Shown one piece after another: positions 45,247-61,342 of a stretch of DNA of 64,000 bases (the first letter of the stretch is position 1; each line of letters opens with the position of its first letter). Origin of the DNA: an uncultured Bdellovibrionales bacterium (lineage in GTDB: Bacteria; Patescibacteriota; Minisyncoccia; Moranbacterales; UBA1568); assembly GCA_964384235.1 (NCBI GenBank), contig CAYLJX010000001.1, positions 169,110 to 233,109 of the forward strand. Reading direction: 5' to 3'. Made by a program: the position numbers and the translations under genes. The notes under the pieces are model-generated. The model did no database searches, was not told where the DNA came from, and saw only the letters and a list, made by a program, of their open reading frames with translations.

Positions 45247-46026
45247 TTAAGTCGTCGAAATCCCGTTCACTCGGTAGTCCCGTTCCACCCCGTTCTGCTT
45301 GAGTGGACGAAGCGCCTGGTCTGCGATGTCCTTCGCTCGTTCGTAGATATCGCAGAGTCTGTCACGGGAGGAAACGCGGAGAGTGCCCACTCCGCCGCTG
45401 GTTCCTACCCTGACCATGTTTCTGCCGTCTTGCTGTCTGCCGCCGAACACGAGCCGCGAATCGTTCCGGAGTGATTCCGTGAACGCGGTTGTGATGCGTA
45501 TGCCTTCGTCATGATCGATGCCCGGGAGGATGACAATGAACTCATCCCCTGCGCGGTTGGATCGCCCGACGAGATTTTTGCGGTCTTGGAAATGCTCGCC
45601 CAATATCTGCGCGAAGGTACGGAGTGCTTCGTCTCCCGTACCGTGTCCGTGTGTATCGTTCACTTGCTTGAAGTGATCGAGATCGAAATAGACGAACGTG
45701 ACGACGATGGAGTCGTCTTCTGCACCTGCATTGCGTAATCCGCGAAAAAGTCTTGATACGTAGGATTTGAACGCCTGCTGCAGTCCGTACTCGTTCAGGA
45801 TCCCGGTGAGATAATCGTGTTCCAACTTATCCCGGATTTCCTGATTGCGACGCTGCAGCCGATCGTTGCCTTTCTGGAGTTCATCGATTTTTCCTTTCAG
45901 TCTGATGTTCTCCAGTGAGGTGACAACGAAGCCTCTTTGAAGCTCGCATGAACGACAATCGCGCCCGTTGACGATCCCGACAGTCTTACAGGACTTGCTG
46001 GGTGTCCGAGGTTTGAGAGGATTCAT
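45247..46026 (-). CDS. GGDEF-domain protein (diguanylate cyclase-like) with AGDEF variant active-site motif and an N-terminal Cys-cluster/coiled-coil
   Basis: DLDHFKQVND..HG.GDEALR...RSNRAGDEFIVIL; N-terminal C-x8-C-x2-C; SD AAAGGAAC. Confidence 0.8.
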   Translation of the reverse strand: MNPLKPRTPSKSCKTVGIVNGRDCRSCELQRGFVVTSLENIRLKGKIDELQKGNDRLQRRNQEIRDKLEHDYLTGILNEYGLQQAFKSYVSRLFRGLRNAGAEDDSIVVTFVYFDLDHFKQVNDTHGHGTGDEALRTFAQILGEHFQDRKNLVGRSNRAGDEFIVILPGIDHDEGIRITTAFTESLRNDSRLVFGGRQQDGRNMVRVGTSGGVGTLRVSSRDRLCDIYERAKDIADQALRPLKQNGVERDYRVNGISTT

Positions 46027-46312
46027 GACTTGTGTTCCTTTTCAGTCCGAAACGGTCGTGGTCGTGAAGTGACACGAACAAGACGGATTACCGGAACGTG
46101 GCAGGTGTGGTAGGGAACGCATGATAGTCTCCTTTCAGGAGGAAGTGATTGAAAAAGGATTGATGAAACGTCTGATGCGCGTGAGTCTTCGAAACCTCCG
46201 GTTCGAAAAAGTTGTCAAAGGACTTTTAAAAACACGCTTCTCACGGTCTTGTTGCACGAGAAAGGCACGTGATATGGAAGCAACCTTATTACAGGGATTC
46301 CGGTTTTTTCTT

Positions 46313-46362
46313 TCAGACAAACAAAAAACCGGCGAGCGAGTACTGCTGTACGCTTGCCGGTT
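46313..46362 (-). terminator. Rho-independent terminator between the two GGDEF genes
   Basis: The minus strand reads AACCGGCAAGCG ... CGCTCGCCGGTT followed by TTTTTTGTTTG. Confidence 0.75.
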
Positions 46363-46383
46363 CAATCTTAATCCCGAGAAATT

Positions 46384-47328
46384 CTAACCCAGGATATCCT
46401 CGATTTCCTTGGCCAGACTGACGCGGTTACGTCCCTTCGCCTTGGAAACATAGAGGGCGCCGTCGGCTGCGTTGATGGCGCGATCGATTGCTGCCTCGAC
46501 CTCCAGGTTATTGAGATGCTCACTGTCGAGATGCACCTTGGCCACGCCGATGCTTGTCGTGATGCGAAGCGCTCCATCGGCAAAGAGGAAGGTATGGTCC
46601 GCTTCGATTTCTCGACGCAGCTTCTCGGCAAGTTCCAGGGCCCCTTTTTCGTCCTCCTGGATGATGACGAGGAACTCATCCCCTCCCTTTCGGCCGACGA
46701 TATCCGACCCGCGACGACGGAAGACTTCCAGAAGCTTCTTGGCGAATGCCGCAAGCGCCCTGTCCCCTTCCTTGTGTAATTGCATCTCGTCGTTCAGGAC
46801 CTTGAAGCCGTCGAGATCGAGGAAGATGACATACATCTCGGGCATCTCGAGCACGATGTCCGGATGCTGCTTCTCGATCTGTCGCAACGTGTGACCTATG
46901 AGACCGGCCTCACGTTGCATGGCGATCTTGATGCCACGCAAGTTCAGGATCCCGGTCAGCTCATCCAGGAAAGCGATTTCTTTCAGCTGATCCCTCTCCT
47001 TCGTCAGCTCAAGGATCGTTGTGGTCGCTCTTGCTATCACTTCCTGGTCCCGTTCGTGAGAAGCGGCCAGTTTCTTGAGGAGCCCTTCCAGTTTGATGAT
47101 CTCGTTCCGCGCTCTCGCGTGGGCGTTGATCATCGTTTTGGTCTGGCTTGAGGCCTCAGATACTGCATGCTCCAACACCTCCTTCTCTTTTTCGAGCCGC
47201 TGGTTTTCCTTGTGGAGCTGATTGAGCTCAGCCTGCTGCGGGAACAACTGAAACAACTTCTTGATCCACCCCCCGATGAGGAAGGCGGCGAAGTCAACCA
47301 TGCCGTTCTGTTCATTCTTGGTAGTCAT
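46384..47328 (-). CDS. GGDEF-domain diguanylate cyclase with N-terminal coiled-coil
   Basis: Canonical RKGGDEF motif (VGRKGGDEFLVII), DLDGFKVLND, and inhibitory-site-like KVHLDSE. Confidence 0.85.
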   Translation of the reverse strand: MTTKNEQNGMVDFAAFLIGGWIKKLFQLFPQQAELNQLHKENQRLEKEKEVLEHAVSEASSQTKTMINAHARARNEIIKLEGLLKKLAASHERDQEVIARATTTILELTKERDQLKEIAFLDELTGILNLRGIKIAMQREAGLIGHTLRQIEKQHPDIVLEMPEMYVIFLDLDGFKVLNDEMQLHKEGDRALAAFAKKLLEVFRRRGSDIVGRKGGDEFLVIIQEDEKGALELAEKLRREIEADHTFLFADGALRITTSIGVAKVHLDSEHLNNLEVEAAIDRAINAADGALYVSKAKGRNRVSLAKEIEDILG

Positions 47329-47566
47329 TTTCAGCCCTCCTCAGGCAAAAAGATGTGGAAAGTTGAGCGCAAAACAGAGGTCTTGGCACTCAGGGGGTGA
47401 TTTTAAGGTACAATTACCATTATAGTACAAAAACATATTTTTGTCAAGAGTGCTCGAGCGAGATTCTTTTGCTACAATACAGATGATTGTTTACCAATCA
47501 TTCACTCTTACTCTTGTTTTCTCTTCTCACTTTTGACTTTTAACCTTTGACTTTTGCCTTTACGTT

Positions 47567-48724
47567 ATGCGTCTCTCCTACTCCAGTCTCGATACCTACC
47601 AGACCTGTCCGCTCAAGTACAAGTTCCGCGAGATCGACAAGCTGTCTGAGCCCAAGTCCAAGGAGGCACAGTTCGGCACGCTCATCCACTCGGTGATGAA
47701 GTATATCCATACGCCGAGCCTCCTTCCCCCTACCCTGGAACAGGCGCTCGACCTCTATGCCAAGGGATTCAATCCGGAGACGTACGACAACGAACTCGAG
47801 GAACGCGCAGCCTTTTCCGCCGGCGTGCAGATGATTCAGAATTACTACGGGAACAACAAACCGGAGGATTTCACCATCGTCGACTTGGAAAGCCGTTTCG
47901 CTATCGAGATCGGAAACGAGGAAACAGGGAAACACATTGTCTCCGGTATCATCGACCGTATCGACAAGACCGCCGATGGCTACGAGATCATCGACTACAA
48001 GACGACGCGCAAGATGCCCTCGCAGGACAAGGTCGACAACGACATCCAGCTCTCCATCTATCTCACGGCGTTTCTCAAACGGTATCCCAAGGAAGCCGAG
48101 AACCTCGACAAGATCACGGTGAGCCTCTACTACCTCAAGCACGGCGTGAAGCTTTCTTCCAAGCGGACGAAAGAGCAACTGGAGAAGTTGGAAAAGACCT
48201 TCCTCGATGTCATACAGAGCATCGAAGAGGAGAAATTCGACCCTATCCTCTCCCCTCTCTGCGACTGGTGCGGGTATCAGAAGATCTGCCCCCTGTGGAA
48301 GCACAAGTTCGCCGAGACCCACAAAGTGGAAACGGACGAAGTGAAGCAGGCCATCGGCGACTATATGGATCTCAAATCGAAGATGAGCGAGGAGAAACTG
48401 CGTCTTGGCAAGCTTCAGTCCCTCATCCTCTCCTACATGGAACAGGAAGGCGTGGAGCGCGTCTTCGGCGAGCAAGGCATCATCGGCAAGTCGCTCCGGA
48501 AAACGTACAAGTACGATGAGGAGAAACTGAAAAATCTCCTCGAGCCGCTCGACAAGTGGGAGGCCGTTCTCAAGGTCGACGGCGTGGCGCTCCGTAACAT
48601 CCTGGCCGTCCTCCCCTCTTCCGTGAGACAGGAGGCCGAATCCGCCAAGACGATCGACAAGGAAAGCGTCTCGCTCTCCGTCAAGAAAGCGAAGATCGAG
48701 GCGGATGATGAGCTTGCGTTCTGA
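47567..48724 (+). CDS. PD-(D/E)XK nuclease superfamily protein, Cas4/RecB-like, with Cys cluster
   Basis: N-terminal Cys (TCPLKYKF), catalytic core D..EIIDYKT (D-x(n)-E-x-K), and C-terminal CDWCGYQKIC (C-x2-C-x5-C). Standalone; no CRISPR array or cas genes nearby. Confidence 0.7.
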   Translation: MRLSYSSLDTYQTCPLKYKFREIDKLSEPKSKEAQFGTLIHSVMKYIHTPSLLPPTLEQALDLYAKGFNPETYDNELEERAAFSAGVQMIQNYYGNNKPEDFTIVDLESRFAIEIGNEETGKHIVSGIIDRIDKTADGYEIIDYKTTRKMPSQDKVDNDIQLSIYLTAFLKRYPKEAENLDKITVSLYYLKHGVKLSSKRTKEQLEKLEKTFLDVIQSIEEEKFDPILSPLCDWCGYQKICPLWKHKFAETHKVETDEVKQAIGDYMDLKSKMSEEKLRLGKLQSLILSYMEQEGVERVFGEQGIIGKSLRKTYKYDEEKLKNLLEPLDKWEAVLKVDGVALRNILAVLPSSVRQEAESAKTIDKESVSLSVKKAKIEADDELAF

Positions 48725-48776
48725 AACGCTCCGTGACGTGATATACTAGAGGTGTCTTTTTTTGTAACCGATAAAT

Positions 48777-49922
48777 ATGAAAATCGAGCAGCGACGGTTC
48801 GTAAGCGGAAAGTGGGAGGCACCGGTTGGTCCGAACGTCGGCGCTACGGCGCAATTGGTCCTGGCGTTCGGAAGCCGGGCGCTGGTCGAGGACGAGAGCG
48901 CGTATAAGCAGCTCGCCGAGTGGTATCCGGCGGCCAATATCATCCTCGGTTCGACATCGGGTGAGATTTTCGATACGACAGTCGCGGATGACACGTTGTC
49001 TGTCGCGGCGATCTTTTTCGAAAAGACGACGGTGGTGGTCGGCAAGACGACCATCGAAAATTATGAGGAGAGCCGTGAGGTCGGACGTCGCCTGGCGGGA
49101 ACGCTTCCTCAGGAGGGTCTGACGCATGTGCTCGTATTTTCCGAAGGATTGAAGGTCAACGGGACGCAACTGGTAGCCGGTCTCGGTGAGGGTTTGCCGA
49201 AAAACGTTTCGGTGACAGGTGGTCTGGTCGGTGACGCGGAGCTTTTCAAGGAAACGGCGGTCGGTCTCGACGGACCGGCACAGTCCGGTATCGTGGTCGC
49301 GGTCGGTCTCTACGGAAACGCCCTCAAGGTCGGCTATGGGTCGCTCGGCGGTTGGGATCCCTTCGGTATCGAGCGCATCATCACCAAGTCCAAAGGCAAC
49401 ATCCTCTACGAACTCGACGGTCGCCCGGCCCTGGAGCTCTACAAGGAATATCTCGGTGATCAGGCCAAGGACCTCCCGGGCAGCGGTATCCTCTTTCCTC
49501 TGAGCATCGAGGTCAGAACCGGAGGAAAAGAGGCCAACGTCGTGCGCGCCGTCCTCTCCATCAACGAGGCCGATCAGAGCATGAACTTTGCCGGCGACGT
49601 ACCGGAAGGCGTTCCTGCCCAGCTCATGAAGGCCAATTTCGAACGCATCATCGAAGGCGCGGAAAAAGCCGCTAGCATGAGTATCGAGAGCATCGGGAAC
49701 GGTCAGGCCGAACTCGCCCTTCTGGTCTCCTGCATCGGCCGGAAGATGGTGCTTCGCGAACGGACCGAAGAAGAGCTCGAAGCGGTCCGCAACGTGGTCG
49801 GTCCGCAGGCGGTCATCACCGGTTTCTATTCGTACGGCGAGCTCTGTCCGACAGTCGCTACCGAAAAGCAGTGCCAGCTTCACAATCAGACGATGACCAT
49901 TACCACCCTGCGCGAAGAGTAG
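48777..49922 (+). CDS. FIST-domain sensor protein (FIST_N + FIST_C)
   Basis: Typical FIST sequence (LVLAFGS..., GGLVGDAELF, ITGFYSYGELCP). Confidence 0.75.
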   Translation: MKIEQRRFVSGKWEAPVGPNVGATAQLVLAFGSRALVEDESAYKQLAEWYPAANIILGSTSGEIFDTTVADDTLSVAAIFFEKTTVVVGKTTIENYEESREVGRRLAGTLPQEGLTHVLVFSEGLKVNGTQLVAGLGEGLPKNVSVTGGLVGDAELFKETAVGLDGPAQSGIVVAVGLYGNALKVGYGSLGGWDPFGIERIITKSKGNILYELDGRPALELYKEYLGDQAKDLPGSGILFPLSIEVRTGGKEANVVRAVLSINEADQSMNFAGDVPEGVPAQLMKANFERIIEGAEKAASMSIESIGNGQAELALLVSCIGRKMVLRERTEEELEAVRNVVGPQAVITGFYSYGELCPTVATEKQCQLHNQTMTITTLREE

Positions 49923-49956
49923 TCATTCAAAAAGCAAAAAAACAAACACCACTTTC

Positions 49957-50673
49957 ATGACTTTCGATTTAAACTCTCTCAACCTGCATCCCACGCTCAA
50001 GCGGCAGATCACCAGGTATCTTCCTTCGGAGACGCCGGTTCTCGCTGTGCATGCGCCCATACTCAAAGCGATCAGTGAGACCTATACCCACGCCGACGAC
50101 GATCGGACGCTCTTTGGGCGCTCTCTGGACCTGAGTTCCAAGGAACTCTCTGGGAACGTCTCTCTGCTCAAGGCGACGCTTGAGGCGACGACCGACGGTA
50201 TCCTCGTGGTAGGAAGTGACGGCCGGATCGTCACTCACAACCAGAAATTCGTCGACATGTGGCACATCTCCAAGGAAGTGATGGCGACGCGGCAGGATGA
50301 CAAGGCGATCGAGTTTGTCCGGGAACAGCTCGTCGATCCGGAGACCTTTACGGAAAAGGTCAAAGAACTGTACAACCAGGCGGATGCCACAGGCTTTGAT
50401 ATCTTGGAGTTCAAGGACGGCCGTGTGTTCGAGCGCTATTCTATCCCCCAGAAGGTCAGAGGCAAGACCGTGGGTCGCGTCTGGAGTTTCCGCGACGTGA
50501 CGGAAAAGTACCGGTCGGAAAAAGACCTCGAGAAGAAGGTCGTCGAGCTCGAAAAGATGAACAAGTTCATGATCGAACGCGAGCTCAAGCTCGTCAACCT
50601 CAAGAAGGAACTCAAAGCCCTCAAGGCAAAGTACGGCGAATCCTCCCCTGCCGAGGAGGAGGAAGCGGTCTAA
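49957..50673 (+). CDS. Stand-alone PAS-domain protein with C-terminal coiled-coil, no output domain
   Basis: PAS fold (LEATTDGILVVGSDGRIVTHNQKFVDMWH ... GRVFERYSIPQKVRGKTVGRVWSFRDVTE). Confidence 0.75.
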   Translation: MTFDLNSLNLHPTLKRQITRYLPSETPVLAVHAPILKAISETYTHADDDRTLFGRSLDLSSKELSGNVSLLKATLEATTDGILVVGSDGRIVTHNQKFVDMWHISKEVMATRQDDKAIEFVREQLVDPETFTEKVKELYNQADATGFDILEFKDGRVFERYSIPQKVRGKTVGRVWSFRDVTEKYRSEKDLEKKVVELEKMNKFMIERELKLVNLKKELKALKAKYGESSPAEEEEAV

Positions 50674-51386
50674 GACCCTTTCTTTTGGATCGTCGCGACA
50701 ATCGCGGCGTGGTCACTTACACCGAATTGTAGTCGGACGTTTTCAGTCTGGTATTCCGGGGTACTGAAGAGCCCGTCGACCATGAACCGTACCGCTCCCT
50801 TGGTCTTGTGAAGGTTTGGATCCAGGCTGGTATCGTACTTGCTTGGGATATGATCTCGATATTTCATGGCGATCGTATCAAAGGTTTCCATTCCTCGGGG
50901 AGCGTTGAAGTCGCCGCAGAAAAGGATGTCACGGTAGCCGGAGAGGAGATCGAGAAATACGGAAAGGTCGCGACGTTGCCGGTCGTCAGGTTCCCCTTTT
51001 CCCGTGAAGGTGAAGTGCGTCGTTCCGATCGTGTAATCAGTCCCATCGCAAGAGACCGACCCGGTGAGAAGTACCCTGTTGACCACATGACCCCAGGTGA
51101 AATCTTTTGCGGAAAAATAATATTCGGTCCGGATATCCGTGAGCGGAAAGCGTGAAAACAAGCCGATACCGACCATTGCCTTTTCCTCGTCGGGATTTTC
51201 GATTGTACCCATTGGAGCGAAGGCATGATAATAGCCATATCTCTCTGCGAAATCGTGCACCTCGTTTTCCCGCAGCTCCTGAAGGCAGAGGATGTCTGGG
51301 TTTTCTCTCGCGACGAAATCACGGACCCGCGTTTGGTGCATGGTCCCGTCCGCCCCCTGGATATTGATGGATACGAGCTTGAGCAT
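50670..51386 (-). CDS. Endonuclease/exonuclease/phosphatase (EEP) family protein
   Basis: LCLQEL, GDFNAP and SDHAAIV motifs. Confidence 0.8.
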   Translation of the reverse strand: MLKLVSINIQGADGTMHQTRVRDFVARENPDILCLQELRENEVHDFAERYGYYHAFAPMGTIENPDEEKAMVGIGLFSRFPLTDIRTEYYFSAKDFTWGHVVNRVLLTGSVSCDGTDYTIGTTHFTFTGKGEPDDRQRRDLSVFLDLLSGYRDILFCGDFNAPRGMETFDTIAMKYRDHIPSKYDTSLDPNLHKTKGAVRFMVDGLFSTPEYQTENVRLQFGVSDHAAIVATIQKKGS

Positions 51387-51395
51387 GGGACTCTT

Positions 51396-51740
51396 TCAGT
51401 TTAGTTCAGAAACGAGTTGAATCCTGATCGCAAGAACGCCGAATTCTTTCTCCTCTTCCGGAGTGTATGTCTTATACATTTTCATATATTCGTCCTGGCT
51501 GAGGCTCCCGTATTCATTCGGTGGAAAGGCAGCGAACATTTCTTTGAACGAAGGAAAGACTGATAGAGCGAGTATCTTGGTTAGGATTTTCTCTTCTTCA
51601 TCGTGCGCAAGACGAAACTCGATCTCGTCCCCTATTTTGAGCCGTCTTCTTTTCTCATCGTTCAATCTGATCTCGATGACTTTCGATCCATCCTTGATTT
51701 TCCCAAATCCGCTGGGATTGAGTTTCATGCGATGAAGCAT
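51396..51740 (-). CDS. ASCH-domain (PUA-like, nucleic-acid/modified-base-binding) protein
   Basis: GSKVIEIRLNDEKRRRLKIGDEIEF core; markedly lower GC. The track start (TTG at 51797) coincides with the -35 box of its own promoter, so the ATG at 51740 is used (51728 is also possible). Confidence 0.6.
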   Translation of the reverse strand: MLHRMKLNPSGFGKIKDGSKVIEIRLNDEKRRRLKIGDEIEFRLAHDEEEKILTKILALSVFPSFKEMFAAFPPNEYGSLSQDEYMKMYKTYTPEEEKEFGVLAIRIQLVSELN

Positions 51741-51768
51741 AGGGTTGACGGGTCTATATAACAACTGA

Positions 51769-51797
51769 AATATAGCCTTAAAACAAGCTTTTTTCAA
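51769..51797 (-). promoter_or_regulatory. Promoter of the ASCH-EEP operon (TTGAAA-17-TATATT)
   Basis: Minus-strand TTGAAA (51797-51792) and TATATT (51774-51769). Confidence 0.55.
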
Positions 51798-51916: not shown

Positions 51917-51988
51917 TGGGGAGTAGCCAAGCGGTAAGGCACCAGGTTCTGGCCCTGGTATGCGTAGGTTCGATCCCTACCTCCCCAG
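51917..51988 (+). tRNA. tRNA-Gln (anticodon CUG)
   Basis: UGGGGAG acceptor paired with CUCCCCA, anticodon stem CCAGG/CCUGG with loop UUCUGGC, T arm GUAGG-UUCGAUC-CCUAC. Confidence 0.85.
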
Positions 51989-51996
51989 CACATCAA

Positions 51997-52039
51997 ATCA
52001 AAGAACGTATCCTTCTTTGGGTGCGTTCTTTGATTTTAT
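51997..52039 (+). terminator. Rho-independent terminator after tRNA-Gln
   Basis: ATCAAAGAACG ... CGTTCTTTGAT followed by TTTTAT. Confidence 0.75.
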
Positions 52040-52257
52040 CTGAAGAGTAGGAATCGAACAGTGAAAGGGGTCGGGAAAACTCCCGTTTTCCCGTTGCGGA
52101 GAGCAGCCCGTCAGGGCGCTGAGAACCGAGGGGTTCTCAGAGAGCGCCGAGTGAAACGAGAAGCGAGTGAGATCCTGCCTCCACAGTATTTCAACATAAA
52201 AAAATCGGGTGATTGGAAGGATTCCAACCACCCTTTTCATGTCATATGACCCGTCGG

Positions 52258-52689
52258 TCAGCTGCTGGTCCGTTGACCGTTTTTCGACCCGACCCCGAAG
52301 AATTCTGCCGCGTCGTCGACGTTTGTCATGCCGAACGGCTTCCCTTCGCCGTCTTCGATCGCCTTGCACACTTTTTTCATGCATTGGGCGAAGAGCTCGA
52401 CCGCATCTTCCCAGACACGCATGGTCTGTCGGAGCGATGTCTCAGACAGGGAGCGCTCCGGCTCATTACGGCCGTATCGGCTCAGGGAGACATTATGCTT
52501 CTTCCCGTCGCTACGGAGGGAAAGTCCTCGGATCACGTACAGGTCTTGCGTGTGTAGCTCTACCCAGACCTGGCCCAGATCAAGCGAGATTTTGCCGCGA
52601 GGACTGCGGCGGAGTTCGGGGTGTCCCTGAGGTCTTTTCCCTTGTAAGTCACCCAAGCGCCTCGGTGAAAGTTTGCTTTTAACAGTCAT
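52258..52689 (-). CDS. Hypothetical basic protein, co-oriented immediately downstream of the HD-hydrolase gene
   Basis: SD GGAGAG 6 nt before the ATG at 52689 (track start 52701 lacks an SD). Arg/Lys-rich; no recognisable domain. Confidence 0.4.
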   Translation of the reverse strand: MTVKSKLSPRRLGDLQGKRPQGHPELRRSPRGKISLDLGQVWVELHTQDLYVIRGLSLRSDGKKHNVSLSRYGRNEPERSLSETSLRQTMRVWEDAVELFAQCMKKVCKAIEDGEGKPFGMTNVDDAAEFFGVGSKNGQRTSS

Positions 52690-52822
52690 GATTCTCTCCA
52701 TACCCGTTTTGGAAAACAGCTACTGTCATTTCTCGCATGACCCAGTCATTCTGTCAATGCAATCCGGTACCCTGGTCCTTTTCTGAAAAAAACGCGCCGT
52801 GGTCCTGTGGTCAGGTACGGCG

Positions 52823-56614: not shown

Positions 56615-56890
56615 ATGGAACGAACCCACAAGGAAAAGGTGGCCATCGCCATCAAGAAAGCCGAGAGTCACCTCTCAAAAGTCCGTTCATTGATCGAGGA
56701 AGACGCGTCCTGTTTCGCGATCATGCAGCAGAACCTGGCTGCCATAGGTCTCCTGAAGTCGGTCAATCTCCTTATGTTGGAGGGGCATATCGACCGTGAG
56801 ATAGGCAGGCATGGTGGCCCGGCGTCGAAACAGCTGCAGTCCCTGAAAACGGAGATCCTCAAGGTCGTGAAGACTTCGCAGAACAAGTAA
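56615..56890 (+). CDS. CsoR/RcnR/FrmR-family (DUF156) metal- or aldehyde-responsive transcriptional repressor
   Basis: 91-aa all-helical protein with conserved Cys (EEDASCFAIMQQ) and His (LEGHI) at the family W-X-Y-Z positions; it lacks the second Cys of bona fide Cu-CsoR. Confidence 0.7.
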   Translation: MERTHKEKVAIAIKKAESHLSKVRSLIEEDASCFAIMQQNLAAIGLLKSVNLLMLEGHIDREIGRHGGPASKQLQSLKTEILKVVKTSQNK

Positions 56891-56916
56891 AGGGTAAATA
56901 TTTTCGTCTGAATCGT

Positions 56917-58071
56917 ATGAAGAAGCGCTTTTTTGTCATGGTCGGAATCCTGTTTTTGGTACTTGGCGGAGGTGCGGTCATCGCGCGCTCCGGCAGTGCC
57001 GAAAACGAAGACGTGAAACCGAAAAAGACGGTCAAGGCGGTTCCTGTCTCCCCTGCCCCGTTCCGGTCCGAAGAGACGTTCTCCGGTTTTGTCCGTGGCG
57101 CGAGACAGTCCGTCGTCTCGGCGAAGACAAGCGGATATATTACAAGGCTCCTGAAGGAAGAAGGTGATACGGTCCGTCGGGGAGAAACCATTGCCGTCAT
57201 CGACGGGAGCGATCTCGCGGCTGCTGAAGCGAGCGCGATTGCGGTCTTCGAGTCTGTCAGGGAAACCTCGAAAGAAACGAAGCGCTACTATGAACAAAAA
57301 ATCGAAGAAGCCGAGGCGGCGCTTGAAAGGGCGCGCGATGAGCACGAGGACGGAAACGCGTCGGAAAAGGAGGTCGATCTCGCCGAAGAATCCCTGAAAA
57401 GCGCCAAGCGGCTGCGTGACGCGCAGGTCGCCTCCGCGAAGGCGGAAGAAACAACCGCGAAGGGCGTGGCAGCGATTGCCCGGGAAAACGCAGGCAACAT
57501 CGCGATCAAGGCGCCGTTCGACGGGGTGATCGCTGAGAAGCGGGCTTCTCTCGGGAGTTTTCTTTTCCCTGGTTCGGCTGTCTATGTGGTCGCTTCGGAA
57601 GAGGCGCTCGAAGTGGCTGTGTCGCTTCCCGGCAGTGTCGCCGATGGCGTCGCGAACGGATCCAGGGTCAAGGTATCTTCGGATGGTCTGGGAGATATCG
57701 AAGGACATGTCTTTTCCTTGTCTCAGACAGTCGGAGAGACACAGCGATCGCGTGTGCGTATCCGGTTCGTATCGGATACCGCGAAAGCGCTTCGCCTCGG
57801 TGAACACGTGTCCGTAGTCTTTCCTTACGGTGATGCGCGACAAACGATCTTTATTCCCCAGGAAGCGATCATCAGGACATATGACGACGCGTTCGTATTC
57901 GTCATACGGGACGGACGATCGAAGAAGACAGCCGTCACGCTCGGTGAAAACGTGGACGGCAGACAAGAGATCCTTTCCGGTCTTTCCGAAGGTACGCATG
58001 TCGTCGTCGAGGGCGGACATGGTCTCGACGATGACGAGGAAATAGAAGAACGCTATGAAGAATCACGATAA
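56917..58071 (+). CDS. Efflux RND periplasmic adaptor (HlyD/MFP family)
   Basis: N-terminal TM, coiled-coil hairpin, lipoyl and beta-barrel domains. Confidence 0.8.
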   Translation: MKKRFFVMVGILFLVLGGGAVIARSGSAENEDVKPKKTVKAVPVSPAPFRSEETFSGFVRGARQSVVSAKTSGYITRLLKEEGDTVRRGETIAVIDGSDLAAAEASAIAVFESVRETSKETKRYYEQKIEEAEAALERARDEHEDGNASEKEVDLAEESLKSAKRLRDAQVASAKAEETTAKGVAAIARENAGNIAIKAPFDGVIAEKRASLGSFLFPGSAVYVVASEEALEVAVSLPGSVADGVANGSRVKVSSDGLGDIEGHVFSLSQTVGETQRSRVRIRFVSDTAKALRLGEHVSVVFPYGDARQTIFIPQEAIIRTYDDAFVFVIRDGRSKKTAVTLGENVDGRQEILSGLSEGTHVVVEGGHGLDDDEEIEERYEESR

Positions 58072-61000
58072 GGATACGTCAAATCAGGTGTCGCTCGGTC
58101 TTGCGGGAAAAATCACCCGGGTATTTCTCGTCAACAAGGAGCTCTCGATCCTCTCGATCATCGTGCTCTTCGTCTGGGGCGCGGTCTCGTTTTGGCTTAT
58201 GCCGAAACAGTACAACCCGGAGATCGTCGCTCCGGCCTTCACGATCTCGACGGAATTTCCCGGCGCTTCCGCGGAAGAGGCGTATGAGCTTGTCACTCGT
58301 CCTCTCGAAGACATGATTTCCGAGCTTCCAGGCATCGATGAGATAACGTCGGAAAGTCATCCGGGCGGACGAAGCGTCGTCACGGTCAAATTTCTTGTCG
58401 GATCTGACAGGGAAGATGCGAAAACCACGCTCAATCAGAAACTCCGGGACAATATCGGTCTCAAGCCGGCGGGTGCCGCTGAGCCGACAGTGCAGTCTGT
58501 CGATCCGGATGACGTGCCGATACTCGATATCGGACTCTCGTCGGAAACGCTTTCCGAGAGCTCGCTTCGCAAGCTTGCCTTCGATGTCGCTGACGAGCTG
58601 AAGCGTTCCGAAGGCGTGTCGAAATTCGAGATCAAGGGTGGACGCACCAATCATCTTCAGGTCGAGCTTGACGCGAACAGGCTCTCGGCGCTCGATATGA
58701 CGATCGGAGAGGTGACGCGTGCCATTACCGGACAAAACGACGTCTTCACGTACGACTCGCTGCAAGGCGACGGACGCGACCCTGTCGTGAACATCGTCGG
58801 AAGCGTCCGGGATCGGAAGGAACTTTCGCGGCTTATCATACGAAAAGAAGGTGATATGGCGGTGCGTCTCGGTGACGTGGCGGCCGTCTCGTACGGACCG
58901 GGCGAGATCACTGATTACGTCCGGATAAGGAATCGCGGATCCGTATCCGGACCGGTCGTCCACATCGCGTTCTCGAAACTCAAAGGCACGAATTCGACCG
59001 CGGTCTCGACGGCTGTTCTCGAAAAGCTGGAGGTTCTGAAGGAAGGACTCATCCCGAGCGATGTGACCGTGACGGTCTTGAGCGACGAAGGCAAGACGGC
59101 ACAAGACGAGATCGGCAAGCTTACCTTTGATCTGGTGAAATCGATCGTCATCGTGGGCATCCTCCTGTACGTCTTCCTCGGCGCCAAGAATTCGCTCATT
59201 GCGGCCATATCGATCCCGCTCGTGCTCTTGGCCGTGTTCGGCATGGGACTTCTGGCCGGTGAGACGGTGAACCGCATCACGCTCTTCGCGCTCATTCTCT
59301 CCCTCGGGCTTCTTGTCGATGACGCAATCGTCGTCGTGGAGAACATCGCCCGGTATTTTCGTCTCTATCCCGAAGAAAAGAAGACTGTCCTCATCGTTCG
59401 GGCGGTGGACGAGGTCGGCGGGGCGCTTTCGCTTTCGACCATGACCATGGCGCTGGCGTTTCTTCCTATGGCGTTCGTGACCGGGATGATGGGCCCGTAC
59501 ATGGGACCGATCCCCTTCTTTGTGCCGGCCGCGCTTTTCGCCTCGCTTCTTTTTGCCGTCACTATCAATCCCTTTCTCGCCTCCTTGCTCGTATCCGGCA
59601 AGAAGAGCGATGATGCTTCTTTGGAACGTTCGTATGAGTCGGGAATCTTTTTCCGCATATCGAAACGTGTCGAGACCCGATACGCGGGATATCTTTCCGG
59701 TCTTCTCGCTGACAAGAAGAAGCGCCGGCTGTTTCTCTCCGGCGTCCTTGTGATGCTTGTTTTTTCTCTTGTCCTGCCGATGACGCCGCTCGTCCCATTT
59801 CGTATGCTCCCCAAGGCCGACAAGGACCAGTTCTACGTCTATCTCGATATGCCGGCCGGATCGAGTCTTGGAAAGACCGCTTCAGCCGCCACGGCGCTTG
59901 AGGAAGCGATACTTCGCATGGCTGAGATCGAGTCGGTCGAAAGTTTCGTCGGCGAGTCGCAGGTCATCGATTTCAACGGACTTTTCAAAGGAAGCGCGGC
60001 ACGTACGTACGGGCATCAGGCGACGCTCAAGGCACATCTCACGCCTCATACGGAACGCGATGAGGTTTCCGAAGCGATCGTCGCCCGTCTTCGCGGCGAG
60101 CTTGACGGGTACCTGCAAGAGTATCCCGACGCGACGATTCGCCTCATAGAGGATCCGCCCGGACCCCCGGTGCTCTCAACGTTTCTTCTCAAGGTAAAAG
60201 GGAAAGACGACGTCATGCGGGAACGGATCGCCCAGGATTTTGAAGCAATGATGGGGAGCATCGAGGGCATCGTCGATATCAAGACGACATTACCCGAACG
60301 TGGTCTGGATCTCACGTACCGGGTGGATCGGGACAAGGCAGCAATGCTCGGCATCGCGCCGAGAGATATTGTCTCGACGATCCATACCGCCCTTTCCGGT
60401 TCGACCGTCGGGCTGTATCACGGATCGACCCGGGAGGATATCCGCAAGGCCGAAGCAGAACACGTTGTGGTACGGTTCAGGCAAGAAGACCGAAACGGCG
60501 AAGGCGACCTGTCACGGATCCTGCTTTCCGGCAAGGACGGCACCAGTACCCCACTTTCCGAAGTGATCGTCAAAACGGATGGAGCGGTCGAACCGGCGAT
60601 CCTCTCCGATGGACGCGAGCGCACCACGTATCTCTCGGGTGAGATGGAGGGACGAAGCGTCGTGTATGCCGCTATCGATATCTTTCCGTGGCTGTTCTCA
60701 TACGCGCTGCCTGACGGCACGGGGAAGCTTGTTTCCTGGTCGCCTTTCGGAATGACCTATGAGGACCAGACGACGCACGAACGCTATTCGGTCGGGATCG
60801 GCGGCGAGTGGGAGCTCACCCTCGAGGTGTTCCGTGACCTGGGGATCGCCATGGGACTAGCGATGTTCCTTATCTACTTCGTCCTTGCGGCCAAGACGGA
60901 ATCGCTCTTCGTTCCCCTGCTTATCATGGTCAGTATCCCGCTCTCGCTTATCGGAGTACTTCCGGGTTTCGCTGTCCTGTACGCGCTGAAAGGCACGTAC

Positions 61001-61342
61001 TTCAATGCCACCTCGATGATCGGGGTGATCGCCCTCTCCGGACTTGCGGTCAAGAACGCGGTCATCTATCTCGAATACCTCGAACCGTTGAAACGGGCCG
61101 GCAAACCGATCGAGGAAGCGTTGATCGAGACCGGCCGTATCCGGCTTCTTCCGATCGTTCTTACCTCTCTCGCGGCCATCTTCGGGTCGCTGACCATCGT
61201 GAGTGATCCGGTCTGGGAAGGACTCGCCTGGTCGATCATCTTCGGTCTCGCCGCATCGACGTTTCTGACGCTCATCGTCTTCCCGCTTGCCTACTACCTA
61301 TCCGAACGAAAATCCTGGACTGACAAGAGTCGTCATACGTGA
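58055..61342 (+). CDS. RND-superfamily efflux transporter permease (AcrB/CzcA-like), 1095 aa
   Basis: 12 TM helices with two large periplasmic loops; typical RND motifs (LAAISIPLVLLAVFG.., GLLVDDAIVVVENI). Confidence 0.85.
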   Translation: MKNHDKDTSNQVSLGLAGKITRVFLVNKELSILSIIVLFVWGAVSFWLMPKQYNPEIVAPAFTISTEFPGASAEEAYELVTRPLEDMISELPGIDEITSESHPGGRSVVTVKFLVGSDREDAKTTLNQKLRDNIGLKPAGAAEPTVQSVDPDDVPILDIGLSSETLSESSLRKLAFDVADELKRSEGVSKFEIKGGRTNHLQVELDANRLSALDMTIGEVTRAITGQNDVFTYDSLQGDGRDPVVNIVGSVRDRKELSRLIIRKEGDMAVRLGDVAAVSYGPGEITDYVRIRNRGSVSGPVVHIAFSKLKGTNSTAVSTAVLEKLEVLKEGLIPSDVTVTVLSDEGKTAQDEIGKLTFDLVKSIVIVGILLYVFLGAKNSLIAAISIPLVLLAVFGMGLLAGETVNRITLFALILSLGLLVDDAIVVVENIARYFRLYPEEKKTVLIVRAVDEVGGALSLSTMTMALAFLPMAFVTGMMGPYMGPIPFFVPAALFASLLFAVTINPFLASLLVSGKKSDDASLERSYESGIFFRISKRVETRYAGYLSGLLADKKKRRLFLSGVLVMLVFSLVLPMTPLVPFRMLPKADKDQFYVYLDMPAGSSLGKTASAATALEEAILRMAEIESVESFVGESQVIDFNGLFKGSAARTYGHQATLKAHLTPHTERDEVSEAIVARLRGELDGYLQEYPDATIRLIEDPPGPPVLSTFLLKVKGKDDVMRERIAQDFEAMMGSIEGIVDIKTTLPERGLDLTYRVDRDKAAMLGIAPRDIVSTIHTALSGSTVGLYHGSTREDIRKAEAEHVVVRFRQEDRNGEGDLSRILLSGKDGTSTPLSEVIVKTDGAVEPAILSDGRERTTYLSGEMEGRSVVYAAIDIFPWLFSYALPDGTGKLVSWSPFGMTYEDQTTHERYSVGIGGEWELTLEVFRDLGIAMGLAMFLIYFVLAAKTESLFVPLLIMVSIPLSLIGVLPGFAVLYALKGTYFNATSMIGVIALSGLAVKNAVIYLEYLEPLKRAGKPIEEALIETGRIRLLPIVLTSLAAIFGSLTIVSDPVWEGLAWSIIFGLAASTFLTLIVFPLAYYLSERKSWTDKSRHT

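Follow-up and report, generated by a model that had tools for sequence, protein, structure and literature searches.

A FIST gene and an output-less PAS gene of a Patescibacteria genome as a probable NosP-like two-gene cassette

What do two sensory genes regulate when neither of them encodes an output? This question is raised by a FIST gene and a PAS gene that stand side by side in a 64,000-nucleotide (nt) stretch of contig CAYLJX010000001.1 (assembly GCA_964384235.1), here called the window. Both are separate, co-oriented genes without an output domain, as an earlier sequence-only reading of the locus had stated and Pfam searches confirm. That reading proposed either a fragmented multidomain signaling protein or a set of trans-acting sensors that control a nuclease encoded upstream, two GGDEF proteins encoded on the opposite strand, or both. 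The explanation favored here, with a probability of roughly 0.7, is that the FIST gene and the PAS gene together make up a conserved signaling cassette, composed of a NosP-like accessory sensor and a partner that is marked by an N-terminal module (Nmod) and lacks an enzymatic output, and that the nuclease is unrelated to it. The proposed cassette comprises the following features.

48777-49922 (+ strand): stand-alone FIST gene, 381 amino acids (aa), with FIST_N at residues 26-216 and FIST_C at residues 218-358
49957-50673 (+ strand): PAS gene, the kinase-less FIST partner, 238 aa, consisting of Nmod, PAS and a C-terminal coiled-coil motif (ccC)
49984-50163 (+ strand): Nmod in the PAS gene, N-terminal, about 60 aa (residues 10-69, LHPTLKRQITRYL…ISETYTHADDDRTLFGRSLDLSSKEL)
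50164-50526 (+ strand): PAS core in the PAS gene, of PAS_7/PAS_4 type (residues ~70-190)
50542-50640 (+ strand): ccC motif in the PAS gene, a C-terminal coiled coil (residues 196-228, VELEKMNKFMIERELKLVNLKKELKALK)

Pairing of FIST with an N-terminal module

Stand-alone FIST sensors of the NosP type are widespread, and how they recognize their partners is not understood. A stand-alone protein of FIST_N plus FIST_C is the known NosP architecture; proteins of this type bind to a neighboring kinase without a recognized sensor domain and control it (PMC12570481; PMC8846402). The window FIST protein matches FIST_N (E = 5e-42) and FIST_C (E = 3e-36) in Pfam and no further domain, and a PDB sequence search returned nothing meaningful. 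In a homolog search, 7999 of 8000 scored candidates fell at E<=0.001; among the matches listed, identity to the window protein was ~57-62%, barring a few closer relatives, and named homologs came from Doudnabacteria, Taylorbacteria and 'Patescibacteria group'. The expectation of the sequence-only reading that FIST is normally fused to an output did not hold, as 120 of the 120 homologs listed are stand-alone FIST plus FIST_C proteins of 373-471 aa. No fusion of FIST to an output domain was found among the relatives examined, namely these 120 homologs and the 80 loci described below. The family alignment (A2) has 98 invariant columns, and the ratio of non-synonymous to synonymous substitution rates (dN/dS) against a sister strain is 0.045. 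Judged by these homologs, the window FIST can be assigned to a very large subfamily of stand-alone FIST_N plus FIST_C proteins of ~380 aa, mostly from Patescibacteria.

The partner of FIST is recognizable by its N terminus. A Doudnabacteria homolog (60% identical) lies in an operon in which FIST is followed by a 456-aa HisKA-HATPase kinase and a receiver, and the window PAS protein aligns with the Doudnabacteria kinase at the N terminus only. A scan with a FIST profile, restricted to one genome per species, yielded 80 loci, in which open reading frames (ORFs) were called and searched with profiles built here. Nmod starts the adjacent, co-oriented gene, at residue 1, in 76 of these loci; the gene lies downstream of FIST in 74 cases and upstream in two, at a median gap of 4 nt. 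Its consensus is MHxxLERQLKKxxGxxxxxPxxxxxFLxxVSxTYxxxDxDRxLxERSLExSSKEL. What follows Nmod varies among the 76 loci: 44 have a histidine kinase, 15 a short coiled coil with ccC at its end (mostly proteins of ~105-160 aa), eight PAS plus ccC (six of them 220-243 aa long, like the window gene) and nine other arrangements. The window PAS protein belongs with these partners, having an N-terminal Nmod and a co-oriented FIST gene that ends 34 nt upstream. The whole-family profile (A1) matches it from residue 10 on, and the Nmod profile (A3) matches residues 10-68 of a 95%-identical ortholog (P0121) with 79 bits.

A control set was selected independently of Nmod and FIST by scanning metagenomes with peptides from the PAS core of the PAS-protein alignment, which again gave 80 loci. 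A FIST gene lies directly upstream of 8/8 PAS proteins with a full Nmod versus 0/72 others (one-sided Fisher test, ~3e-11). The loci of the other 72 contain no FIST gene anywhere, and one of these proteins bears half an Nmod. FIST adjacency thus tracks Nmod rather than the PAS domain. Among the full-Nmod proteins are five of the type Nmod-PAS-HisKA-HATPase(-REC) (L101, L104, L107, L132, L152) and one Nmod-PAS-GGDEF-EAL protein (L103), the latter 47% identical to the window PAS protein over residues 10-193. The read-through fusions that the sequence-only reading proposed to look for exist in part: next to FIST genes, the PAS gene occurs fused to kinase or GGDEF-EAL outputs, and FIST itself is never included among the relatives examined. 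When Nmod proteins were looked up by exact sequence, FIST was upstream in 4/4 cases, one of them on a contig labeled Thermodesulfovibrionales, and FIST directly precedes the Nmod-PAS-ccC gene in every context looked up.

The pairing extends to a more distant host, although not to every FIST gene. On the Azospirillum oryzae plasmid NZ_CP054620.1 (L180, 6001-12183), a FIST gene with a 42% identical product is followed first by the gene of a 1305-aa 'PAS domain S-box protein' and then by a response regulator. The 1305-aa protein begins with an Nmod that carries a loop insertion of ~25 aa, which places Nmod in Alphaproteobacteria as well. A Roseomonas plasmid carries a FIST gene of 25% identity with no Nmod next to it, so the pairing rule is limited to this FIST subfamily and does not hold for all FIST proteins.

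Nmod itself is common and has escaped annotation. Its profile was searched against 1.84 billion cluster representatives, of which 4862 matched at E<=1e-3; the stricter limit of E<=1e-10 left 2382. Each of the 150 matches listed has the module at its N terminus, in host proteins of 67-1069 aa. Pfam searches with 144 of these 150 representatives found PAS_4 in 58, HisKA in 49, REC in 13 and GAF in 10, and more rarely GGDEF (3), EAL (2) and SpoIIE (1). A search of a word-indexed collection of 5.8 billion proteins returned 40 proteins of 54-109 aa without Pfam domains, which are uninformative on architecture. No family model over Nmod was found in Pfam, NCBIfam or PDB sequence searches, even when the isolated peptide was run against Pfam to E<=10. 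In the predicted structure (AlphaFold2, AF2), Nmod opens with a short helix, which a loop connects to the first part of a long helix. Gene adjacency suggests that the FIST protein may dock on Nmod or use it as a receiver.

The PAS protein and its C-terminal coiled coil

The remainder of the PAS protein contains a sensory domain and no enzyme. Residues ~70-190 match PAS_7 (31.6 bits, cutoff 27) and PAS_4 (30.0 bits, cutoff 23.1), and the sensory_box model of NCBIfam also matches; Pfam and NCBIfam found no HisKA, HATPase, GGDEF or EAL domain in the 238 aa. The AF2 model has a predicted local distance difference test score (pLDDT) of 85.8 overall and ~90 across the PAS core, and shows helices at 12-21 (short) and 30-77 (long, running into the PAS core), the strands of the core (81-180) and another long helix at the C terminus (182-225). 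Foldseek searches with this model retrieved PAS, LOV and FixL structures with flanking helices, including effector-less short LOV proteins. Because its translation contains no cysteine, the protein is not of the LOV type.

Several lineages encode full-length orthologs of 219-243 aa that are 42-53% identical and share 26 invariant residues. These orthologs keep both the stop position and the C-terminal ccC motif. Relative to the sister strain, the window gene has 35 synonymous and 17 non-synonymous differences (dN/dS 0.12). At its stop, the gene overlaps a convergent Exo_endo_phos gene by 4 nt, so a kinase remnant 3' of the PAS gene is impossible. From sequence comparison, the PAS gene is best regarded as an intact member of a kinase-less class, neither a fragment nor a pseudogene.

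The second new element is ccC, with the family consensus ELExxNKxMVGRELKMIELKKxI (GRELKMIELKKEI-like). Its profile matches the window PAS protein (2.4e-14) as the sole match in the 64 kb. R, E and K are invariant in the ccC alignment (A6). Across the 80 FIST loci, 41 proteins encoded in 30 loci contain the motif, always near the C terminus (median tail, 4 aa), and nine loci encode two or three ccC proteins. It ends Nmod and Nmod-PAS proteins as well as kinase-less membrane sensors of the types dCache_1-HAMP (~405 aa) and CHASE4-HAMP (~411 aa). It is distinct from a truncated DHp domain. The isolated peptide found no match in Pfam to E<=10, and a PDB sequence search gave generic coiled coils only. 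Of the 25 loci in which the Nmod partner lacks a kinase, at least 15 also encode a separate, Nmod-free kinase; 7/7 of those kinases checked contain HAMP and/or PAS, and some also dCache_1 or CHASE4. The ccC motif may thus be a docking or output helix that couples kinase-less sensors to a separately encoded effector, although this role is a guess. Searches of the 64 kb of the window detected neither a kinase nor a receiver, no further ccC protein and no type IV pilus gene, which makes its FIST/PAS pair an 'orphan', like those of L008 and L096.

Two gene clusters of other Patescibacteria contain FIST together with pilus genes. The locus L097 (1-10820) encodes REC, T2SSE (with a weak MshEN match), T2SSF, pilins, FIST, Nmod-ccC, CHASE4, PAP2 and a HAMP kinase, and L010 (5850-14666) contains a FIST cluster that ends with a kinase, REC, REC and T2SSE. 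The position of these clusters beside type IV pilus genes hints that they may take part in pilus regulation. In another locus (L026, 2006-7322), FIST is followed by genes for Nmod alone (118 aa), for PAS-ccC (182 aa), for a further protein with ccC (393 aa) and for a kinase with PAS (658 aa). As the partner is split further here, its parts behave as separable modules.

A mechanism for the cassette can be proposed in three steps. Ligand-dependent docking of FIST on Nmod would shift the long helix that runs from Nmod into PAS, the PAS domain would add a second input, and the C-terminal ccC helix would dock as a coiled coil on an effector encoded by a separate gene and so pass on the resulting state. 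The end attached to Nmod differs between genomes, being a HisKA-HATPase kinase (the commonest), GGDEF-EAL, a short coiled coil alone, or PAS plus ccC. In related kinase-less loci the likely effector would be the separate kinase of the same locus, a protein that the window lacks within its 64 kb. Seen as a form of the NosP-type accessory-sensor system, the cassette is new chiefly in two unannotated elements, Nmod and ccC. Within the literature searched, no paper was found that links FIST with the Candidate Phyla Radiation, or that combines a FIST domain, an accessory role, a histidine kinase and a coiled coil.

Several observations weigh against this explanation or parts of it. About 5% of FIST genes have no Nmod neighbor. 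An 80%-identical relative of the window FIST (L093) is among those without one and stands alone among unrelated genes, and a Legionella plasmid FIST (L179, 43% identical) has no partner gene. The NosP equivalog model of NCBIfam (NF041558) gives the window FIST 55.9 bits, below its cutoff of 450, and since this score is far under the threshold the NosP ligand is not transferable to the window protein. Contact between FIST and Nmod is suggested by gene adjacency, and searches with ccC gave neither a structural nor a family match for the role proposed. Three lineages, including that of the window, carry the FIST/Nmod-PAS pair with no kinase nearby, so a kinase-independent function is possible. 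Finally, no terminator was detected in the 52-nt spacer between the nuclease and FIST genes, which would allow co-transcription of the nuclease with the pair.

A wider and more speculative claim is that Nmod and ccC belong to an undescribed, modular 'split-sensor' scheme that is especially common in Patescibacteria. In this tentative scheme, FIST docked on Nmod(-PAS)-ccC adaptors, dCache-HAMP-ccC sensors and CHASE4-HAMP-ccC sensors might converge through the ccC helix on a shared, separate effector, in most cases a kinase and in the window possibly the coiled-coil GGDEF cyclases, and Nmod might be a new FIST-receiver domain that predicts partners across bacteria. Kinase-less Nmod-PAS-ccC proteins, together with ccC on Cache/CHASE4-HAMP proteins, suggest that small-genome bacteria build sensory pathways from separately encoded parts. 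A module that has no database model and yet predicts FIST adjacency also offers a testable handle on the sensor-partner interface and on genome-wide prediction of partners. For annotation, the false lead of a sensor-controlled, Cas4-like nuclease is removed, and the PAS gene proves not to be a pseudogene.

Neighboring genes and other explanations

Two GGDEF genes lie on the opposite strand immediately upstream, as the sequence-only reading had noted.

46384-47328 (- strand): GGDEF1, 314 aa, coiled coil plus GGDEF without a sensor domain; a candidate target only
45247-46026 (- strand): GGDEF2, 259 aa, short coiled coil plus GGDEF domain with an AGDEF motif; a candidate target only

The Pfam GGDEF model scores 78.6 bits on GGDEF1 and 76.6 bits on GGDEF2. 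GGDEF1 has an intact GGDEF motif and an RxxD site, RGSD, five residues upstream of it; GGDEF2 has the AGDEF motif and no RxxD site. At the N terminus, both have a coiled coil only and no sensor domain. A perfect sigma70 consensus, TTGACA-17-TATAAT, is located upstream of GGDEF1 at 47447-47419 on the - strand. By their proximity in this species, GGDEF1 and GGDEF2 are the only local effector candidates; their control by the FIST/PAS pair is an unsupported possibility.

An alternative built on this proximity, and an unlikely one, is that the FIST/PAS pair is a trans-acting sensor of the adjacent GGDEF proteins, in which ccC pairs with the N-terminal coiled coil of a cyclase and gates cyclic di-GMP synthesis, as a split version of Nmod-PAS-GGDEF-EAL. 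The two proteins are sensor-less, carry N-terminal coiled coils, and are the sole other signaling enzymes found in the 64 kb. The FIST-adjacent fusion L103 and the Nmod-GGDEF combination in 3/144 representatives provide a fused counterpart, and accessory sensors that act on cyclases in trans are known, as in H-NOX with diguanylate cyclases and IsmP with ImcA (PMC8846402, PMC10904736). However, GGDEF genes occur in 0/80 FIST loci, and the other Nmod-PAS-ccC contexts revealed none either, by Pfam annotation in L008, L010 and L096 and by homology search in L099. The arrangement is kept in near-identical strains only and is lost at 80% FIST identity. Moreover, the GGDEF genes are divergent from the pair and have their own consensus promoter. 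GGDEF1 is 28% identical to the GGDEF domain of L103, a generic value, and thus shows no sign of a recent split from a fusion of that type.

Somewhat less probable again is a decoy or buffer function, in which the kinase-less Nmod-PAS-ccC protein titrates FIST or heterodimerizes with Nmod kinases encoded elsewhere. Retention of the FIST-linked Nmod without an enzyme domain would suit such a role, as would the orphan pairs without a nearby kinase in three lineages. Yet the conserved ccC is common to Nmod-free membrane sensors, which argues for an active docking function, and it is the pair, not a kinase, that holds the canonical place directly after FIST.

The gene directly upstream of FIST was described by the sequence-only reading as a stand-alone Cas4/RecB-like PD-(D/E)XK nuclease with an iron-sulfur (Fe-S)-type cysteine cluster, and this description is upheld.

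47567-48724 (+ strand): PD-(D/E)XK (RecB/Cas4-like) nuclease gene, 385 aa; a neighbor outside the cassette

The protein matches PDDEXK_1 over the full model (133 bits) and Cas_Cas4 with only 30.5 bits; the cas4 model TIGR00372 gives 41.9 bits, which does not reach its cutoff of 65. Its best match is to phage-type exonucleases (phrog_69, 109 bits). The catalytic motifs are intact (IID130, D143-Y-K145, Q161xxxY165), and the protein contains exactly four cysteines (C14, C232, C235, C241), arranged as C…CxxCx5C, the Fe-S pattern of the Cas4/AddB type. It ends in a C-terminal extension of ~140 aa. PADLOC reported weak Cas4 matches only for the nuclease and no other cas match among seven neighboring proteins, and no CRISPR-like direct-repeat families were found in the 64 kb. 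A PDB sequence search with the nuclease gave nothing meaningful.

A single operon of the nuclease, FIST and PAS genes that places the nuclease under the control of the sensors, for example as a signal-gated DNA-repair or defense enzyme, is highly improbable. In its favor, the three genes are co-oriented, with spacers of 52 nt (nuclease-FIST) and 34 nt (FIST-PAS) and no terminator detected, the catalytic motifs of the nuclease are intact and accompanied by an Fe-S-type cysteine cluster, and PADLOC gives its weak Cas4 matches. Against it, a nuclease homolog is encoded in 1/80 FIST loci, and there it forms the C-terminal domain of a larger protein (991 aa), whose gene is on the opposite strand at a distance of 1.8 kb from FIST. 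No homolog is present at the 80%-identical FIST locus L093 or, by annotation, near the Nmod-PAS-ccC genes of L008, L010 and L096, and a homology search of the 80 PAS-selected loci, L099 among them, found none. An extended -10-like element, TGATATACT, was seen by eye at 48739-48747 (+ strand), within the nuclease-FIST spacer and 29 nt 5' of the FIST start; it may provide the FIST and PAS genes with a promoter of their own. A defense system was likewise considered and rejected: PADLOC matches no model to the FIST, PAS or GGDEF proteins. From its distribution, the nuclease appears to be a neighbor unrelated to the FIST/PAS cassette. Of the trans-acting sensor set proposed earlier, the FIST/PAS pair stands, as a conserved pair joined through Nmod; control of the nuclease falls with its single, non-adjacent occurrence, and control of the cyclases is unsupported, given their absence from the 80 FIST loci.

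The least probable explanation is that a multidomain sensor kinase or cyclase has broken up and that the PAS gene, or FIST and PAS together, is its non-functional remainder: the fused relatives Nmod-PAS-HK and Nmod-PAS-GGDEF-EAL and the missing output domain would fit it, but the fragmented protein of the sequence-only reading is refuted, under the refuting condition which that reading itself had set, by FIST homologs that are consistently separate (80/80 loci) and never fused among the relatives examined, by recurrent PAS orthologs of 220-243 aa with the same architecture, stop position and ccC across lineages at 42-52% identity, by the dN/dS of 0.12, by a ccC that is a conserved motif and not a cut-off DHp domain, and by the convergent gene that leaves no space downstream.

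The surroundings of the cassette were also compared with those of its closest relatives. A near-identical strain preserves the entire nuclease/FIST/PAS/GGDEF arrangement. Along window positions 45247-51386, the sister-strain contig L094 has a nucleotide identity of 99.7-99.9% in the GGDEF and nuclease genes, 98.6% in FIST, 92.7% in the PAS gene and 93.9% in the Exo_endo_phos gene; this drop points to a recombination breakpoint within FIST or directly behind it. The region convergent to the PAS gene (50670-51797, - strand) encodes two proteins, one of the Exo_endo_phos family (238 aa) and one with an ASCH domain, the latter matching the phage family phrog_19935 ('RNA-binding protein', 87 bits). 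The sensor pair is thereby flanked on both sides by nucleic-acid enzymes, a phage-like exonuclease upstream and Exo_endo_phos/ASCH downstream. Farther on, a tRNA gene (51917-51988, + strand) is followed by ~800 nt (52000-52800) with only overlapping, unconvincing ORFs in the window, where other assemblies (L001) annotate a 143-aa minus-strand gene without a Pfam match. The annotation of the sister contig lists, in the region that corresponds to 56668-61342, a repressor of the CsoR-like type, a membrane-fusion protein and an RND (ACR_tran) pump of 1095 aa. The 1095-aa ORF is also found in the window; such genes would be surprising in a monoderm Patescibacterium, if the organism is one.

Comparison with known systems

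The closest known systems are those in which NosP is paired with NahK, NosK or NarR. Like NosP, the window FIST is a stand-alone FIST_N plus FIST_C protein encoded directly upstream of a signaling partner. In 44 of 76 relatives, this partner is a soluble kinase without a recognized sensor domain that is followed by response regulators, as in NosP operons (PMC12570481, PMC8846402). Unlike NosP, the window FIST scores 55.9 against the required 450 bits on the equivalog model, and its partner has no HisKA/HATPase, with no kinase or receiver found in the 64 kb.

The nuclease resembles Fe-S nucleases of the Cas4/AddB/RecB family in its D…(D/E)XK and QxxxY motifs and its C…CxxCx5C cysteines. It differs from Cas4 in falling under the TIGR00372 cutoff, in the lack of CRISPR-like repeats in the window, in having the phage-type exonuclease phrog_69 as its best match, and in its 140-aa C-terminal extension.

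The PAS protein is comparable to short LOV and other stand-alone PAS proteins, such as PpSB1-LOV and PF5-LOV, in that a PAS core with flanking helices is present and an effector is not. Short LOV proteins signal via helical dimer interfaces. The window protein differs from them in the lack of any cysteine and of the LOV (NCRFL) motif, in its additional N-terminal module tied to FIST, and in a C-terminal motif that is common to Cache/CHASE4-HAMP proteins.

Sensors without an output of their own that act in trans on a separate enzyme are also known from H-NOX, which acts with HnoK or with cyclases, and from IsmP, which acts with ImcA (PMC8846402, PMC10904736). By analogy, the window sensor, which likewise lacks its own output, may work as an auxiliary component of this kind. 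Whereas the H-NOX and IsmP systems have two layers, the kinase-less form of the cassette would imply three, from FIST through an Nmod-PAS-ccC adaptor to the effector.

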